From positions 44,769 to 108,768 of the forward strand of contig CALWGY010000004.1 of the NCBI GenBank assembly GCA_944380265.1: DNA of 64,000 bases, in the 5' to 3' direction. This document shows, one piece after another, positions 11,123 to 45,314 of this stretch. Positions within the stretch are counted from its first letter, which is position 1, and each line of letters begins with the position of its first letter. A model generated the notes under the pieces. That model was not told where the DNA came from. It made no database searches and saw nothing but the letters and a program-made list of their open reading frames with translations. The position numbers and the translations under genes were made by a program. This DNA is from an uncultured Clostridia bacterium (GTDB lineage: Bacteria > Bacillota > Clostridia > Christensenellales > UBA1242).

Positions 11123-13168
11123 TTAAATATCAAAGTCACCAAAATCACTAAACGAGTTTGAACTGCTTTGTGCATTAACATTTAAAACTTTTTTGTTTCT
11201 TTCCCTTATGTCGTAGTAAACCTTGCTTTCATCAAGCATTTTTGGAATGATGTAATCATCTTGTGGAGGTTGCATATCATAAAACTTTTGTGCTTGTGGT
11301 AAGTAACTTGGGGTTGTTTTAACTTTAATTGGGTTTTGTTTTAAAATTGAAACAATAAGTTCATCTTTCAAACTTCCAAGTTCGGCAGGATAAATTAATG
11401 GACGAGAATCAATATTAACACTTGTGGTTGTTGTGCTTTGTTCATCTTTTTTGCCTTTTGAAGTTGTTGTGCTTTCTGTTTCAACAGTGATGTTTCCACA
11501 ACGTTTGCTAAAATCTTCTTGTGTTGCTGGGTCGTTTGAACCAATGTAAACGTGAATGTTACAGTTATCTTTTATGGTTGCTGCAACTTTTTCATCATAT
11601 TTAATTGCAAGTTGTTGATATGATTGAAGCATTAAATAGAAAAAAATGTTTCTGGAACGAGCAACAGTTATCATTGTTTCGAAGTTTTGAATTGCTGGCA
11701 TGTTTGCAAATTCATCCAGAATGTAATAAACAGTTCTAGGAAGTGCACCACCGCGTTTGTTTGCAGTGTCAACCAAAATTTTGTAAAGTTGGCTAATAAA
11801 CATGCTGGCAATTGCGTGACGTGTTACTTTTTCATCAGGAATTTTAATAAACAGAGCAGTTGGTTGGTCGGTAAATGTTTTTAAGTCCATTTCGTTTGTG
11901 TGGGTTGCGTAGCACACACCCATGTCACTAAACAAGTTTAATCTTTCCGAAACAATACCCATATAAGATTTTTTGGTGTTATCGGCATTGGTGATAACTT
12001 GGTTTGCAAGTTGTGTTGCTTGACTTAAATGGTCACGTCCAGCAAAGTAATCACTAATGGTTTTCATTGGATTAAATGGGTCGTTATCTTTAAAGTTTGC
12101 AATTTTTGCAACGTTATAAAAGTTAAATTTTTCTTTTGTCATGCCAAGTTCTGGTTTTTCACTGTCTTCAAGCATGGCAAGCATAATTGCCAAAATAAAG
12201 TCTTTTGCACCACTTTCCCATGTTGGGTCGGATTTGCTTAGCACTGGGCAAAGTGTCATGGCAATGTCTTTAAGGTCTTCCATTGCTTCCGATTTTAGTT
12301 GTTGCCTTAATCCACCAATTTGTGATTTAACTGTGTTCATATCGGCAAAAGCAACTCCATTAAATTCATACCATTCCGAATAGTAAACGCTGCTTGCAAG
12401 CCTCAAATTAGGGTAGTTGCGTGGGTCATCTCCACGGTGCACCAAAATTTCTTTTTCCAAATTGTTTGCACGAGTGTAAAACTCATATGGTCTTGTCATT
12501 GGGTTCCAACAAGTGCTTTTAAATGGGTCTTTTAGGTCAAAAACCAACACTCTGTAACCTTTTTTTCTTAATTTTGCACTATGAAAATCGTAAAGTTCAC
12601 CTTTTGGGTCAGTTATAACCATGCATGGTTTTGCGTGTGATTCGCTATAAACCTGAATGGTTGGGTTAACAAATTGTGTTGTTTTACCAGTTCCGGTTGT
12701 TCCAATTACAAGCGTGTGAATGTTTTTATACATGTTAACAAGCATTCTTCCACCAACAACTTCGGCTCTAATTAAAACGCCAATGTTATCTGTTCTTGGA
12801 AGATCGCTGTAATAGCAAAACATAAATGCTTTGTTTGTTCTTAACTCTTCCGATGTTACCCAATGTGAATCGTAATATTTTTTAAGTCCACCCTTGGTTT
12901 TAATTTTTGCTCCGCTTGATGAATCGTTTGAACCTTTCATAAGTTTTGATAAGTAGTAAAGTGCAAGAAGCAATATGCCAATTACCAAAGTTATTAAAAA
13001 TGTGCCATTAAACAGCAAATTAGGGTCAAACACAATTGAATTGTTTTCTGCAACCGAAGCAACAATATACGACACTATAACAAGTCCAATAATAATACCA
13101 AAGGCAATTAGCATGTGCTTAACAATTTTTTCTGCCAGTGGTTTTTTTTCTTTATCGTCTTTTCCCAT
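11123..13168 (-). CDS. virD4: Type IV coupling protein (VirD4/TraG/TcpA family ATPase)
   Basis: Two N-terminal TM helices, Walker A GTTGTGKT, Walker B-like YYILDEFANMP, and a TraG-type block FFYLMLQSYQQL. The length of 681 aa is typical of the family. Confidence 0.85.
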   Translation of the reverse strand: MGKDDKEKKPLAEKIVKHMLIAFGIIIGLVIVSYIVASVAENNSIVFDPNLLFNGTFLITLVIGILLLALYYLSKLMKGSNDSSSGAKIKTKGGLKKYYDSHWVTSEELRTNKAFMFCYYSDLPRTDNIGVLIRAEVVGGRMLVNMYKNIHTLVIGTTGTGKTTQFVNPTIQVYSESHAKPCMVITDPKGELYDFHSAKLRKKGYRVLVFDLKDPFKSTCWNPMTRPYEFYTRANNLEKEILVHRGDDPRNYPNLRLASSVYYSEWYEFNGVAFADMNTVKSQIGGLRQQLKSEAMEDLKDIAMTLCPVLSKSDPTWESGAKDFILAIMLAMLEDSEKPELGMTKEKFNFYNVAKIANFKDNDPFNPMKTISDYFAGRDHLSQATQLANQVITNADNTKKSYMGIVSERLNLFSDMGVCYATHTNEMDLKTFTDQPTALFIKIPDEKVTRHAIASMFISQLYKILVDTANKRGGALPRTVYYILDEFANMPAIQNFETMITVARSRNIFFYLMLQSYQQLAIKYDEKVAATIKDNCNIHVYIGSNDPATQEDFSKRCGNITVETESTTTSKGKKDEQSTTTTSVNIDSRPLIYPAELGSLKDELIVSILKQNPIKVKTTPSYLPQAQKFYDMQPPQDDYIIPKMLDESKVYYDIRERNKKVLNVNAQSSSNSFSDFGDFDI

Positions 13169-39070: not shown

Positions 39071-40138
39071 ATGGGAAAAATAAAATGTGATTTTAATGTG
39101 CATCTAGACAACTTTGTTAATTATGAAGCAGTTAAAAATGTTTTAATGATGGCGGAAAAACACAAAGTTAAAGCAATAAGTCTTATGGAACATGATGCAC
39201 TTAATTTATATAAAGCTAATGGTGTGCTATATAACTTAATACAAACTGGCGAAATAAACAATTATTACACAGGAAAAATTGTTTCTGGAATTGAACTTAA
39301 TTGCATAATTAATGATGTGCCAATTTCAAAACTTAAATTTAATTATAACAACTATAACATGCATTTAACATTGCTTGATTTTGATTGCGAGAAAATGGAA
39401 ACTTTTAAATGGTTTGACACAAAGTTTTTGGAAAAGTGTTTTTTAAAAGATGTTAAGGCAATTATAAAAATTTTAAAAAAGTTAAAACTTGAAGCACCTA
39501 AAAAAAGGTATTTTAAGTATGGCACAAAAGTTGGAACGCAAGTTTTTAATTTTATGAATGAAAATTTGGATAGAAAACAAAAGTATCAATTAAAACTTGG
39601 TGTTTTTGAAAATTCAGTGGATTTTAACAATTTGTTTTTGGATCCAACTAGCAAACTGTTTTTTAAAAGTGCAGCCATTCCGTATTTAACAGATGTGTTA
39701 GAATTTGCAAAAAGCATTGATGCAAGAATTTATATTTCGCACCCTTGCTACATGAATGCAAAGTTTAACACAACAGATTATTTAGACACACTTTTAAGTT
39801 TAAAAACAGATTTGGCTTTTCCATATGATGGTTTGGAAGTTAATTATCATTTAAATTCGGTTAACGACACAAAACTTTTGCATGATTATGCAACTTCTCA
39901 CAATTTAGATGAGTGTGGTGGCACAGGTTTTAAGTATGCAATAACACCGCAAAATCCAACAGGACAAACCTATGTTGTTAGTAACGGACAAAAAAGTTAT
40001 TTTGTTCCAATTGTTGGAAACATGATTAAAACTTTTTACGAAACTGGAAATGGTGATGCATTAATGGAAGAAAGTTTTGTTAACAGATTAAGCGATATTA
40101 GAGAACAAAAAAGATTTGGTGGAACGGAAGAAAATTAA
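39071..40138 (+). CDS. Hypothetical protein, possibly a degenerate PHP-domain fold
   Basis: The N-terminal CDFNVHLD..KAISLMEHD resembles PHP motif 1-2 but lacks one His. Weak call. Confidence 0.3.
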   Translation: MGKIKCDFNVHLDNFVNYEAVKNVLMMAEKHKVKAISLMEHDALNLYKANGVLYNLIQTGEINNYYTGKIVSGIELNCIINDVPISKLKFNYNNYNMHLTLLDFDCEKMETFKWFDTKFLEKCFLKDVKAIIKILKKLKLEAPKKRYFKYGTKVGTQVFNFMNENLDRKQKYQLKLGVFENSVDFNNLFLDPTSKLFFKSAAIPYLTDVLEFAKSIDARIYISHPCYMNAKFNTTDYLDTLLSLKTDLAFPYDGLEVNYHLNSVNDTKLLHDYATSHNLDECGGTGFKYAITPQNPTGQTYVVSNGQKSYFVPIVGNMIKTFYETGNGDALMEESFVNRLSDIREQKRFGGTEEN

Positions 40139-41379: not shown

Positions 41380-42309
41380 ATGGAATTTGTAACAAATGAA
41401 TATAAAGAATATTTCAAAAATGCTCATGAAACTTTAAAACAACTAGACTCAGTTGCATATGAAAACGGATTGGGTCATTTGTTTACTGAAAAAGAATTAA
41501 GGAAATTTAAATACGCTTCCGAAGTTGACAGGATTAATGAATATGCATATCCGGTTATGCAACCAACAATAGACAAAATTATTGCTTTTGCACAAGATTC
41601 ATTTTTAAGTGAAAATCCACAAGTTAAAAATATGATAACACAACTTGTGCAATATAAAAGTTTTAAACGTGGCGGAAACAAAAACAGCAGGCAAGACAGG
41701 GGTGCAGTTGAAATTTTGAAAGATAACATTAAACAATATCTTGAAAATCCAACACAACTTCCAAAAGCAACTGTTAAAAAGAAAGACCCTGTTAAAAAGA
41801 ATATTAATCAATCAAAACTTAAAGAACCAAGAGTTTTCACTTTAACCGATAAAGATGAACTTGTTAAACCAAACGAACAAACTTGGCAAGCGTTAAGAGC
41901 TTTGGAAAGAGCATGGGCAACCTTAATTAAAGCAAACATTGAACACAGAATTGACAATCAAAACCCAACAGAAAATTGGGCTGACAGAATGCATGTTTCT
42001 TGGTTTGAAGAACTTCAAGCATATAAAGATGCAAAAGTGTTACTTAAAAAAGATGATGACAAAATTAGAGAAAAAGCAAGCACTTTGGCAAAGCAATTTG
42101 AATCTTACGTAAAAACAAAAACAACTCCACTTGATGCTGCAAGCACGCATGCAAAATCAAGACGTAAATTTTTTGCTTTAAAAGGTAACATTAAAAAAGC
42201 AGTTAGAAAACAAGAACAAATTGAACAACAACTAGTTGAACAAGGCAAAAATTTGGAAGAAAGATTAACTGAAACAACTCCAATTAAAGATGAAGGCAAA
42301 AATAAATAA
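41380..42309 (+). CDS. 309-aa Lys/Glu-rich soluble ORFan
   Basis: An RBS (AAGGTGG) is present. No signal peptide, TM helix or recognisable motif was seen. Confidence 0.6.
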   Translation: MEFVTNEYKEYFKNAHETLKQLDSVAYENGLGHLFTEKELRKFKYASEVDRINEYAYPVMQPTIDKIIAFAQDSFLSENPQVKNMITQLVQYKSFKRGGNKNSRQDRGAVEILKDNIKQYLENPTQLPKATVKKKDPVKKNINQSKLKEPRVFTLTDKDELVKPNEQTWQALRALERAWATLIKANIEHRIDNQNPTENWADRMHVSWFEELQAYKDAKVLLKKDDDKIREKASTLAKQFESYVKTKTTPLDAASTHAKSRRKFFALKGNIKKAVRKQEQIEQQLVEQGKNLEERLTETTPIKDEGKNK

Positions 42310-42500
42310 CAACAAAATAAAATTGAAGGTAAATGGTAAATAATTACCTTCAATTTTAGTGTTTAAATTAGAAAAATTCACTATTGACTATGCACAACAA
42401 TTTTGGTATAATTTAGTAAGAAATATTATGGTTAATATTTCTAAAAAAAAATTAAAAAATGTTTTACTTTATGTTGGTGGCACATAAAGGAGGGTTAAAT

Positions 42501-44786
42501 ATGGCAAATGTAACTTTAACACCAGTTCAAGTAATTGCAATTAAACAAGCAATTAGAAGAATTAGTACACAAACTCATATTTCTATCAATGAACTTAATG
42601 GTTATTTATCATCTGGTTTAATGCCTGATGTTGTTTCTCAGGCACTTTTAAATATATATAAAGTTCCAAAATTGGAAGATATTCCTGCTGTGGCAAAAAC
42701 CACAGTTGTAACTGTTGAAAAAGTTGCGCAAATTTATGCAGCTGTTCAAGAGGCAAAAGAACTTGCTTCCGCTGCTCCAAGGAAATATTTAACTGGTGCT
42801 GAACAAATGGCGGTTGTTACAACCATTGGTAAATTAAAAACATATATTAATGAATTAGAAACATTGCGTGCAGAAATTGAAACAAAGCAAAAACTTGCAA
42901 CAAATCCTGCTGATAAACGTAACTTACAAGACCAAAAAGCAGCAATTACAAAACGTATTAAAGCAAGTACAAAAGTTTATGGTGTTTTGTTGGAAGCTAA
43001 AAAGGGTAGTGTGCTTGAAGATGTTTATAATTGGTTGTTTGTAAAATCTGGAATAAAAAATGAAAAAGGCAAACAACTAAATCGTGCATTAGATGATTTT
43101 CATGCAGCACCAGATAAATCTTCTTTACCAACAGGAAACCAGGCACACAAATTAATTAATGAACTTGGCAGAGTTGCTGGTCGTGGATTTGTTTCACCAA
43201 ACCCAAATCCTAATCCAAACCCAAATCCTAATCCAAATCCAAATCCAAACCCTAACCCAAACCCTAACCCAAATCCAAACCCAAACCCAAATCCTAACCC
43301 AAACCCAAACCCAAATCCAAATCCAAACCCAAATCCAAATCCAAACCCTAATCCTAACCCAAACCCAAACCCAAATCCTAATCCAAACCCTAATCCTAAT
43401 CCAAACCCTAATCCAAACCCTAATCCTAATCCAAACCCTAATCCTAATCCAAACCCTAATCCAAACCCTAATCCTAATCCAAATCCTAATCCAAACCCTA
43501 ATCCAAACCCAAACCCTAATCCTAACCCAAACCCTAATCCTAATCCAAACCCTAATCCTAATCCAAACCCTAATCCAAACCCTAATCCTAACCCAAACCC
43601 AAATCCTAACCCTAGCCCAACTACTCCAGATTTTAAATATAAAACATTGCATGTAAGCAAGGGCAGAAGGTTTGTAAACTGGCTTGGAAAACACTGGTTG
43701 TTACTTGGCACACTTGTTGCAGCAGCAGGACTTACCGCAGCAGCATTTTTAGGACCAGCAGGTATGTTTGCAGCAACAGCTGTTGGCAGATTTGCTTTAT
43801 ATAATGTTGTAACTTTAGGTAGTATTGCTGTTGGTGCTAATGTGTTTAAATATTTATTCTTCCGTCGTCACAGACAAGCAGCAACTGACCAAGGTCATTT
43901 GTTAAGAAGAGAAGCAAAAATTCAAAGAAAATTAAGAAGACTTGAAAGATATAGACAAAAAATTAACACATTAGATCAAAAAATTGAATCATACATGAGT
44001 TTAGGAAAAACAAATGGTTTAAAACGTTACAAAAAAGCAATTAAACGTTTGCAAAAGCAACAAGCTAAATTGGACAAAAAAATTGGCAAAGATTCTAAAT
44101 TTATTGGTCGTGAACTTGAAGATAAAGATGCAAAAAAACCTTACGGAAAAGTAAAACGTGCATTAAAAATTTTTGTTGGACATGCTCCAATGGCATATTA
44201 TGTTGACAGGCACAACAAACATATGGATATTTTGGCAGATAAAACCAATAAGTCAAAATTTAAAGATAATAGGCTTGATGGAAACTTAACTGATGAAATG
44301 TTCCGTTGGCATATGTTCCGTCGTAGATATATTGAGGATGCTAAGAAAAGAGAAGCAAGTGCTGCTGATCGTGAAGTGAAGGCAACAGCAGATGGACAAA
44401 ATGCTTTAGCAAAAGCCTTTGCAAGCCATAAAGCAAAGGTTGCGGAAACTCAACAAAGAGTTAGAGATGTAAATCCAGACGGAGCACATCTTGGTGAACC
44501 TGCAAAAGATTTAGTTTTGCATGACACAACATCAACACATTTTGAACCAGATTCAGAAGAAAAAAGAAAGGGTAAAAGAAAAGCAGAAGAAATTGAACGT
44601 ATCATTCATAACGGCAGAGATGCTATGGGTGGATATTCAGGAAAAACTGCGGTTGTTTCTAAATATTTCAAAAACAGAAGTGAAGATATTGCAGCAAAAA
44701 CAGAAATTGCTGGGGACGCAAATGAAGCTGAAGAAATTAAAAAAAGAAATACTCCAATAACCCCTTCTTCTCACAGAACAATGTAA
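42501..44786 (+). CDS. 761-aa membrane protein: helical N-domain, P(NP)69 tract, TM cluster, basic coiled-coil C-domain
   Basis: AAGGAGGG RBS before ATG 42501. The Asn-Pro tract is 43197-43613. The hydrophobic cluster is WLLLGTLVAAAGLTAAAFLGPAGMFAATAVGRFALYNVVTLGSIAVGANVF. The C-terminal ~330 aa is rich in Lys/Arg. Confidence 0.7.
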   Translation: MANVTLTPVQVIAIKQAIRRISTQTHISINELNGYLSSGLMPDVVSQALLNIYKVPKLEDIPAVAKTTVVTVEKVAQIYAAVQEAKELASAAPRKYLTGAEQMAVVTTIGKLKTYINELETLRAEIETKQKLATNPADKRNLQDQKAAITKRIKASTKVYGVLLEAKKGSVLEDVYNWLFVKSGIKNEKGKQLNRALDDFHAAPDKSSLPTGNQAHKLINELGRVAGRGFVSPNPNPNPNPNPNPNPNPNPNPNPNPNPNPNPNPNPNPNPNPNPNPNPNPNPNPNPNPNPNPNPNPNPNPNPNPNPNPNPNPNPNPNPNPNPNPNPNPNPNPNPNPNPNPNPNPNPNPNPNPNPNPNPNPNPNPNPNPNPSPTTPDFKYKTLHVSKGRRFVNWLGKHWLLLGTLVAAAGLTAAAFLGPAGMFAATAVGRFALYNVVTLGSIAVGANVFKYLFFRRHRQAATDQGHLLRREAKIQRKLRRLERYRQKINTLDQKIESYMSLGKTNGLKRYKKAIKRLQKQQAKLDKKIGKDSKFIGRELEDKDAKKPYGKVKRALKIFVGHAPMAYYVDRHNKHMDILADKTNKSKFKDNRLDGNLTDEMFRWHMFRRRYIEDAKKREASAADREVKATADGQNALAKAFASHKAKVAETQQRVRDVNPDGAHLGEPAKDLVLHDTTSTHFEPDSEEKRKGKRKAEEIERIIHNGRDAMGGYSGKTAVVSKYFKNRSEDIAAKTEIAGDANEAEEIKKRNTPITPSSHRTM
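43197..43613 (+). repeat. 417-nt imperfect hexanucleotide repeat encoding P(NP)69
   Basis: AAC/AAT and CCA/CCT codons are interleaved irregularly. Higher-order units such as AATCCAAACCCTAATCCT recur. Confidence 0.95.
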
Positions 44787-44807
44787 TAATTAAATTTAAT
44801 TAGGCTT

Positions 44808-44841
44808 AAAAAAATCACTGATTTTACTCAGTGATTTTTTG
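44808..44841 (+). terminator. Intrinsic terminator after the NP-repeat gene
   Basis: Stem ATCACTGA/TCAGTGAT, loop TTTTAC, then a T-run. Confidence 0.8.
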
Positions 44842-45044: not shown

Positions 45045-45314
45045 AGTTTAATAAATTAAAATTAAAAGCGTTTTAAAAAAGGACAAGTTTGTTTTTTTAA
45101 TTAAGTTGCATTACAGAGAACCAATTATTTTGCTGAGAAATTGGTTGCAAAACAAAACAAATATCACCTTTATAGCTTATCTTCTGAAAAATGTTTTGTT
45201 TAGTAAGTTGATACGTTATCTCTACGTTAGTGAGAGGTGTGTGATTGCACATTTGTTATAAATGGTAATAATGCTTGTGGCATTGTTTTTATAACAATGT
45301 TCACAAGTTTTTTT
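45045..45314 (+). promoter_or_regulatory. Probable T-box leader (Ile specifier) with an AT-rich antiterminator
   Basis: The expected order of elements is present: AGAGA (45115-45119) at the base of a stem AACCAATT/AATTGGTT, a candidate specifier AUC+A (45163-45166), AGUA (45202-45205), and F-box-like ACGUUA twice (45213, 45224). The antiterminator helices are 45253-45260/45290-45297 and 45267-45274/45280-45287, around a bulge AAUGGU (45261-45266). The competing terminator is 45273-45307 plus a U-run to 45314. Confidence 0.6.

Follow-up and report, generated by a model that had tools for sequence, protein, structure and literature searches.

Gene, transcripts and protein architecture

We have analysed computationally a 64,000-nt stretch of DNA from an uncultured Clostridia bacterium (assembly GCA_944380265.1, contig CALWGY010000004.1, positions 44,769 to 108,768), referred to below as the window, which has a GC content of about 31% and contains a gene for a predicted membrane protein of 761 aa with a long run of Asn-Pro pairs. 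This run, P(NP)69, consists of one Pro followed by 69 Asn-Pro pairs without interruption, that is, 139 uncharged residues (233–371) of two types only, encoded by 417 nt in the frame of the surrounding open reading frame (ORF); a regular-expression count returned exactly the number and position given in an earlier note that had been made from the letters of this DNA. The features of the gene are collected in Table 1. Three further stop-free frames of 165–203 aa cross the region (43100-43711 and 43194-43694 on the minus strand, 43159-43656 on the plus strand), but these are made by the repeat and are not genes.

Table 1. Coordinates of the gene, its signals, the parts of its product and the partner gene within the window
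Feature	Position	Strand	Basis or remark
Partner gene (P0019), 309 aa, soluble, Lys/Glu-rich, net charge +12, isoelectric point (pI) 9.4	41380..42309	+	No family match
Sigma-70-type promoter, TTGACT, 17-nt spacer, TG-extended TATAAT	42384..42412	+	Best regional match, 11/12 positions, extended -10
Shine-Dalgarno GGAGG, 7 nt ahead of ATG at 42501	42489..42493	+	Direct sequence reading
ORF, 761 aa (P0001), stop codon included	42501..44786	+	Purifying selection between alleles; in metatranscriptome contigs
N-domain, residues 1-232, conserved, helical, unclassified fold	42501..43196	+	AlphaFold2 (AF2) predicted local distance difference test (pLDDT) 89, predicted template modelling score (pTM) 0.87; alignments A1, A2
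P(NP)69 tract, low-complexity disordered linker (predicted)	43197..43613	+	pLDDT ~30; unrelated low-complexity sequence in orthologues
Basic juxtamembrane segment, residues 372-397 (KYKTLHVSKGRRFVNWLGKH)	43614..43691	+	6 K/R, 0 D/E in the 20 aa before the hydrophobic block
Predicted hydrophobic hairpin, residues 398-454: transmembrane segment 1 (TM1) ~20 aa, G-P turn, second segment ~33 aa	43692..43862	+	Kyte-Doolittle, AF2
Basic helical C-domain, residues 455-761, net charge +29, pI 10.1	43863..44783	+	Conserved; most diverged part between the species' alleles
Intrinsic terminator	44809..44840	+	RNA contigs stop at 44805-44816

The gene is real and functional, as shown by its own promoter, ribosome-binding site and terminator, by a low ratio of non-synonymous to synonymous substitution rates (dN/dS) and by RNA contigs. 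Contigs from four chicken-gut metatranscriptome runs cover 43580-44816 at about 98% identity and end at the predicted terminator. At lower stringency, 1.8-kb RNA contigs (X26, X27) span 41389-43225 at 93% identity, running from the partner gene through the intergenic region and the N-domain to the first 29 nt of an NP-type tract; a second strain, roughly 7% diverged, is found in the RNA with NP-type sequence at both ends of the linker. Expression is deduced here from presence in RNA libraries, contig depth being a poor measure of it. One and the same RNA contig joins the partner gene to the N-domain across the strong promoter and a hairpin between the genes (about 42323-42357), which suggests read-through co-transcription with the partner gene beside transcription from the gene's own promoter.

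The tract joins a helical N-domain, whose N-terminus is not signal-like and carries no signal peptide, to a transmembrane cluster and a very basic C-domain, and in this the AF2 model, hydropathy and net charge bear out the first description of the protein. Residues 398–454 are the sole stretch with a 19-residue Kyte-Doolittle mean above 1.5, and AF2 places helices at 387–416 and 418–500 over this region. Across residues 229–380 the pLDDT is 28–40, which, together with a composition of two residue types, predicts that the linker lacks stable structure. The juxtamembrane segment contains the conserved motif NW[LI]GKHWL, and the C-domain has a net charge of +14 to +33 and a pI of 9.4–10.2 across the family. 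A conserved LPTGN (residues 209–213) lies about 185 aa ahead of the membrane block and does not fit LPXTG; identity as an LPXTG wall-anchored protein was rejected, the N-terminus not being hydrophobic and some 300 aa following the membrane block.

Neither the whole protein nor either of its two domains nor the partner had a significant match in Pfam, NCBIfam, PADLOC or PHROG; PADLOC gave no match at all for protein or partner, and all PHROG matches were at E > 0.02. The family profile hit sigma-factor region-4 chains among the PDB sequences at an insignificant E of 0.2–1. Foldseek searches of the PDB with the full and N-domain models returned generic helical bundles, CdvB/ESCRT-III and BAR domains (best E 0.24–0.38, TM-score ≤ 0.29), which were likewise discarded; for the N-domain model the best E was 0.38, with no significant match.

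A conserved family with a partner gene

The protein had been described as an ORFan, a description that our searches overturn. A word-indexed search with the C-terminal part returned 15 homologues of 699–742 aa at 40–48% identity, and a HMMER search of 1.84 billion representative proteins with the family profile gave 20 matches at E ≤ 0.001, 14 of them at E ≤ 1e-30. Their sources are gut samples, among them human (Hadza) and sheep colon, and the species of the window itself occurs in chicken-gut metagenomes. Judged from these searches, the family is real but narrow, and belongs to uncultured gut Clostridia.

Gene order is also conserved, from close to distant members: yigZ, recX, acpS, an uncharacterised gene, an antitoxin gene, mazF, the partner, the gene itself, and then ileS or rluA and groEL. 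A homologue of the partner, which in the family is a soluble, K/E-rich protein of about 290–365 aa, stands directly upstream of every member that bears the N-domain, including the most distant of these (L013 and L140, profile E about 1e-18). No paralogy was found between the partner and the 761-aa protein. P0036 (452 aa), the relative furthest removed, consists of no more than a short N-terminus, the hairpin and a coiled-coil tail, and is without N-domain, linker and partner gene; its locus shows the same acpS-mazF context, followed by lgt and, three genes away, a DivIVA-domain gene. From this, the hairpin and basic helical domain look like the family core, and the N-domain, linker and partner like a co-inherited add-on.

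In the window the gene sits just upstream of the ileS T-box leader, and lspA and rluD genes lie downstream. The leader (45064-45244, plus strand) matches the Rfam T-box over its full length with E 3.7e-7 and 42 bits against a gathering threshold of 93, and looks like a divergent T-box. A 355-aa ORF (39071-40138, plus strand) lies between acpS and the mazF pair; it is conserved in the close relatives L001, L003 and L005 and absent from L012, L013 and L141, and Pfam and NCBIfam gave no match for it. Some 22–31 kb upstream of the gene, the window also encodes a VirD4/TraG-type coupling protein and a VirB4/TraG P-loop ATPase (11123-13168, minus strand; 17653-20307, plus strand); housekeeping genes intervene, and nothing was found that would connect the two with the NP gene.

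Linker composition across relatives

The linker is the segment between the N-domain and the membrane region, which could not be aligned in alignment A1. Between flanks that are conserved, its length runs from 71 to 182 aa in full-length members and from 129 to 145 aa within the species, and nine unrelated compositions were found, with replacement of one by another within the species too. The window has 145 aa (P 49%, N 47%) at this position, and another strain of the same species, L005, has 137 aa rich in T/P/V. Among the relatives there are a T/P/V linker of 109 aa (P0017), GGGTTPPP repeats over 83 aa (P0002), P/T/Q/K-rich linkers of 98–131 aa in the Hadza-type cluster, an S/T/N-rich one of 108 aa (P0003), a G/N/D-rich one of 161 aa (P0021), a (GGSSS)n repeat of 182 aa (P0026), a D/E/G-rich linker of 165 aa with a net charge of -57 (P0031) and a K/P/E/G-rich one of 71 aa (P0033). 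Since X-Pro, Gly/Ser and polyanionic stretches are all accepted there, the position appears to be used as a disordered spacer and not as a sequence-specific element. Our preferred interpretation is that the linker is a sequence-independent disordered tether, of which P(NP)69 is probably one interchangeable version, and which holds the N-domain at the inner face of the membrane. Probably P(NP)69 is a local, recently expanded form of a hypervariable, disordered, low-complexity linker.

The contigs of L002 and L004 break at their (TP)n and TPV linker tracts. The sheep-colon contig (L002:1-240) has a (TP)n linker with Trp-Pro units (PWPIPTPWPTP) and begins inside the repeat, and the L004 contig likewise begins inside its own; such linkers truncate gene models in metagenome-assembled genomes (MAGs).

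Some of these loci carry, convergent and just downstream, a gene for a soluble family 2 glycosyltransferase with tetratricopeptide repeats (GT2-TPR; 366–373 aa), on the minus strand in each case (L005:7505-8626, L003:6075-7175, L004:1312-2382, L135:4247-5197). It was seen at four of the six loci with Thr/Pro/Val-rich linkers and at none of the four with NP, PQK, GGSSS or acidic linkers, in a small sample of phylogenetically related loci. Its counterpart in the window is a 33%-identical paralogue 18 kb away (62910-63998, plus strand). The GT2-TPR enzyme may O-glycosylate the Thr-rich linkers beside which it is encoded, and would do so in the cytoplasm.

Alleles within the species

Comparison of strains, which had been proposed as a way to detect polymorphism in the repeat, showed that the linker varies in both length and kind. 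Between the window and L005 the DNA is 97–100% identical in the flanks and 100% in the partner gene, and falls to 88–91% in the N-domain and 84% in the C-terminal part. L007 resembles L005, with a partner gene 100% identical to that of the window and a T/P/V linker. The synonymous divergence (dS) is 0.33 in the N-domain and 0.48 in the C-domain, against 0–0.06 in recX, acpS, mazF and the partner, and dN/dS between alleles is 0.16–0.31. By these values the alleles are old, have evolved under purifying selection and were transferred by recombination; this is not a case of fast positive selection. Two further strains, L134 and L135, join an N-domain of the L005 type (99.6% identity) through a T/P/V linker to a C-domain of the window type (97% identity), so the alleles are mosaic and change type within the linker or close to it. 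The T/P/V linkers of three strains measure 129, 130 and 137 aa. Derivation of the T/P/V allele from NP by point mutation (AAY to ACY) is not supported, since ACA predominates in it and its units are built differently.

The same observations could be read as the work of a contingency element, in which in-frame length change and allele exchange adjust the length or identity of the tether under diversifying or frequency-dependent selection. The three T/P/V lengths, the exchange of NP for T/P/V in one species, the mosaic N- and C-alleles and the raised dS relative to the flanking genes would all suit such a role, for which pressures related to phages or conjugation may be imagined. However, with dN/dS below 0.35 the folded domains give no signal of positive selection, there was no match to defence or phage libraries, and the few length differences could be neutral. 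We therefore regard this as a minor possibility, as is any part in it of phages or conjugation, though it is compatible with the linker being a disordered tether.

Predicted topology and reach

In all 12 of the 12 members compared, the 20 residues before the hydrophobic block contain 5–7 K/R and no D/E, and the 20 residues after it contain 6–9 K/R. The block itself is 55–61 aa long in all members and is interrupted by Gly-Pro after about 20 residues. Under the positive-inside rule, and given these positive flanks, we infer a hairpin with both ends in the cytoplasm, and the NP tract is very probably cytoplasmic.

The opposite arrangement would make the protein an extracellular stalk, with the N-domain exported, the Pro-rich tract spanning the cell wall as an extended spacer and the C-domain inside. 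T/P-rich and XP-type linkers are typical of wall-spanning regions in Gram-positive bacteria, an island of divergence with mosaic alleles in strains otherwise 97–100% identical is often seen for proteins exposed at the surface or to phages, and a glycosyltransferase gene adjoins several Thr-rich alleles. Yet the membrane would have to be crossed by 370 residues, N-terminus leading and without a signal peptide; the stretch ahead of TM1 is positively charged and devoid of acidic residues in 12 of 12 members; and a hairpin with its N-terminus outside would put the strongly basic C-domain outside as well. Moreover, the (GGSSS)n and net -57 linkers of relatives are not like wall spacers, and the adjacent GT2-TPR protein has no hydrophobic segment and so would be cytoplasmic. 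A stalk of this kind is unlikely. A wall-spanning ruler, which had been put forward for this tract, is unlikely on the same grounds (the absent signal peptide and the charge of the flanks), a cytoplasmic position being what the earlier note had itself named as excluding it.

The rigid span of about 40 nm that had also been suggested corresponds to the contour length, about 43 nm, and not to the expected extension; polymer theory estimates a worm-like-chain root-mean-square distance of 9–18 nm at persistence lengths of 1–4.4 nm.

Origin and integrity of the repeat

The tract is written with CCA 39, CCT 31, AAT 36 and AAC 33 times. All four hexamer types are present, identical hexamers follow each other at most three times, and Tandem Repeats Finder gives periods of 18, 30 and 48 nt at 83–87% match. 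All 278 first and second codon positions are unchanged, and the third positions are mixed. Elsewhere, Asn and Pro codons number AAT 63, AAC 75, CCA 48 and CCT 19, with CCG and CCC nearly absent. The order of the hexamers is not random, since distinct words of three, four and five units are rarer than in shuffled arrays (P ≤ 0.0008); the two halves of the array differ in composition, and it contains exact internal repeats of 56–65 nt. From the non-random order and the exact repeats it follows that the array grew by duplication of blocks of 18–48 nt. The earlier picture of codon-scrambled hexamers thus stands as regards the mixed codons and the lack of a perfect microsatellite, and fails as regards their irregular order. 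The higher-order units that had been expected to allow length change are there, but selection against slippage, proposed to account for the codon mix, is not needed, because block duplication explains the order of the units and the codons are the ordinary ones of this genome.

A related proposal is that the chemistry of Asn-Pro is itself selected, the tract forming a semi-rigid polyproline-II rod that might be, say, a fixed-length ruler or offer a multivalent site for binding or modification. The constancy of the first and second codon positions beside mixed third positions would agree with this, as would the NP-type linker ends of the diverged strain seen in RNA, and a chain in which every second residue is Pro tends not to compact. 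Nevertheless, T/P/V stands at this place in other strains of the same species, and relatives carry GGGTTPPP, PQK, (GGSSS)n or acidic linkers; the purity of the tract is explained equally well by recent block duplication, and the length is not fixed in either the family or the species. We consider the rod improbable as a functional element.

Independent assemblies, which had been named as the place where a collapsed or frame-shifted repeat would come to light, agree with the window as far as they reach into the tract. L006 is an independent scaffold that carries a 100-N gap; it matches the window at 100% identity on either side of the tract, within which its two contig ends share an overlap of 55 nt. 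The contigs of L008 and L010 end after 10 and 28 units of the repeat, respectively, in an order identical to that of the window, and unitigs from three other samples, chicken-gut short-read runs, tile P(NP)69 with 0 mismatches. The count of 69 units is plausible from these short-read data, and 150-nt reads should resolve it because the internal repeats are at most 65 nt; the conserved domains on both sides confirm the reading frame across the tract. That the repeat is collapsed or chimeric and the ORF a pseudogene or not real, as one might fear of a tract that breaks short-read assemblies, is known from short-read data alone and has in AACCCT a eukaryotic telomere unit that draws foreign reads, is extremely improbable in view of the frame kept between two independently conserved domains, the agreeing contigs and unitigs, the shortness of the internal repeats, the linker of similar size in all orthologues and the gene's presence in metatranscriptome contigs.

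Proposed role of the linker

We propose that the hairpin would anchor the protein in the membrane, its two ends facing the cytoplasm, and that the N-domain would hang under the inner face on a flexible leash with a reach of about 10–18 nm, sampling a shell of roughly 10–20 nm. The length and disorder of the linker would matter, and its sequence would not. The basic C-domain would lie against the inner face of the membrane and might bind nucleic acid or anionic lipid there, and the N-domain would most likely act with the product of the upstream gene of about 300 aa, with which it co-occurs. The array changes through gain and loss of 18–48-nt blocks and through recombination between diverged alleles. 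The place of the gene before the ileS T-box, lspA and rluD downstream, and lgt and DivIVA in the distant relative are a weak pointer to envelope or division organisation. Tentatively, and with considerable doubt, we suggest that the protein and its partner form a previously unrecognised, lineage-specific membrane-tether module for the organisation of the cell envelope or division, whose leash has been rewritten many times.

Several points weigh against the cytoplasmic tether. Its topology is a prediction from the positive-inside rule and the absent signal peptide, and the second hydrophobic segment, a long one of about 33 aa, contains a conserved Arg and Asn, so the arrangement may be one of three transmembrane segments or re-entrant. 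T/P-rich linkers and deep allelic polymorphism are commoner in surface-exposed proteins of Gram-positive bacteria. The purity of P(NP)69 could mean selection for NP itself in this strain and not a recent expansion, and the metatranscriptome contigs may include DNA carry-over. Finally, Pfam, NCBIfam, PADLOC, PHROG and the PDB gave no fold or family match from which a function or a binding target of the N-domain could be read.

Disordered low-complexity tethers are known as such, but this family, its architecture and its pure (NP)69 version are undescribed in the libraries and literature that we searched, where, as had been stated, no characterised bacterial (NP)n protein was found. The earlier note had also suggested a metagenome search for (NP)n of more than 20 units. 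A DNA pattern scan of metagenomes for AAYCCN repeated 12 times gave, among the matches listed (loci L014–L133), mostly telomere-type AACCCT arrays; the longest non-telomeric runs among them had at most 20 units, and the coding (NP)n tracts, of about 16–18 units, lay in unrelated proteins, so short coding tracts do exist and longer ones did not appear in this list. AACCCT, one of the four hexamers, is the eukaryotic telomere unit (CCCTAA), whose arrays at contig ends swamp such scans, and foreign telomeric reads and contigs stick to the tract, as seen from the loose ends of run X3 and from depth spikes.

What had looked like a unique NP rod in an ORFan becomes in this analysis a conserved, uncharacterised two-gene module in which the linker sequence is free. 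It defines a new protein family without a Pfam or NCBIfam model or PDB fold match, and its confidently predicted N-domain is a target for structural and functional work in a poorly known gut lineage. The family also offers a natural series of linker replacements for ideas about disordered tethers, from stiff X-Pro through Gly/Ser to poly-acidic, together with alleles within one species; if the membrane-tether module is true, it is a natural experiment on the freedom of tether sequence. There is a practical pitfall as well, in that tracts of this kind break short-read assemblies and mimic telomeric AACCCT, so that orthologues are often truncated in MAGs and look like ORFans.

Comparison with known systems

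The NANP repeats of the Plasmodium circumsporozoite protein and the EP/GPEET procyclins of trypanosomes are alike in composition only; they are eukaryotic, secreted or glycosylphosphatidylinositol-anchored coats with a different repeat unit. The only Pfam hit of this kind, Trypan_PARP, scored 24.2 bits against a gathering threshold of 100 and was confined to the repeat, a compositional match that agrees with the earlier view that the likeness goes no further.

The (Glu-Pro)n-(Lys-Pro)n region of TonB and other XP-dipeptide linkers, such as the (TP)n linkers of glycoside hydrolases, are X-Pro repeats that form extended spacers. As in TonB, X-Pro dipeptides stand here between a membrane anchor and a functional domain, but the spacer of TonB is periplasmic, charged and about 30–70 aa long, whereas the present one bears no charge, is 139 residues long, would by prediction be cytoplasmic and precedes the transmembrane segments; TonB_C found no match in the 761-aa protein in Pfam. 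A likeness of position links the gene to divIVA, which in Bacillus subtilis occupies the slot just upstream of ileS: the gene fills the slot upstream of the ileS T-box leader, and the most distant family member lies near a DivIVA-domain gene, beside lgt. Pfam and NCBIfam scans found no DivIVA domain in the protein or the partner, and position alone does not establish function.

The nearest analogues in function are the PQ tether of ZipA of Escherichia coli and the C-terminal linker of FtsZ, although the protein belongs to neither family. In the passage of PMC6904479 that cites Ohashi et al. 2002, it is described as a transmembrane helix followed by a charged region, a PQ tether of about 100 aa and a globular domain, the part of ZipA that binds FtsZ. 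As far as that description goes, both proteins are membrane-anchored, have a Pro-rich tether to a folded domain and a basic region beside the membrane, the cytoplasmic location here being a prediction. Unlike in ZipA, the order is reversed, with the folded domain N-terminal and a hairpin anchor in mid-protein, and there is an additional basic C-domain of 300 aa; neither sequence nor fold similarity to ZipA was found (ZipA_C has no Pfam match at E ≤ 1, and there is no PDB fold match). The behaviour of the linker may be compared with the C-terminal linker of FtsZ, a likeness of functional class and not of homology, which linker PMC9939409, where it cites Gardner 2013 and Buske & Levin 2013, describes as variable in length and sequence. 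In both, to the extent of that account, a disordered linker varies freely in length and sequence between conserved flanks; here neither the protein nor the position of the linker is the same, the linker is longer and in many cases repeats in tandem almost perfectly, and its freedom of sequence is suggested by the comparison of natural sequences.

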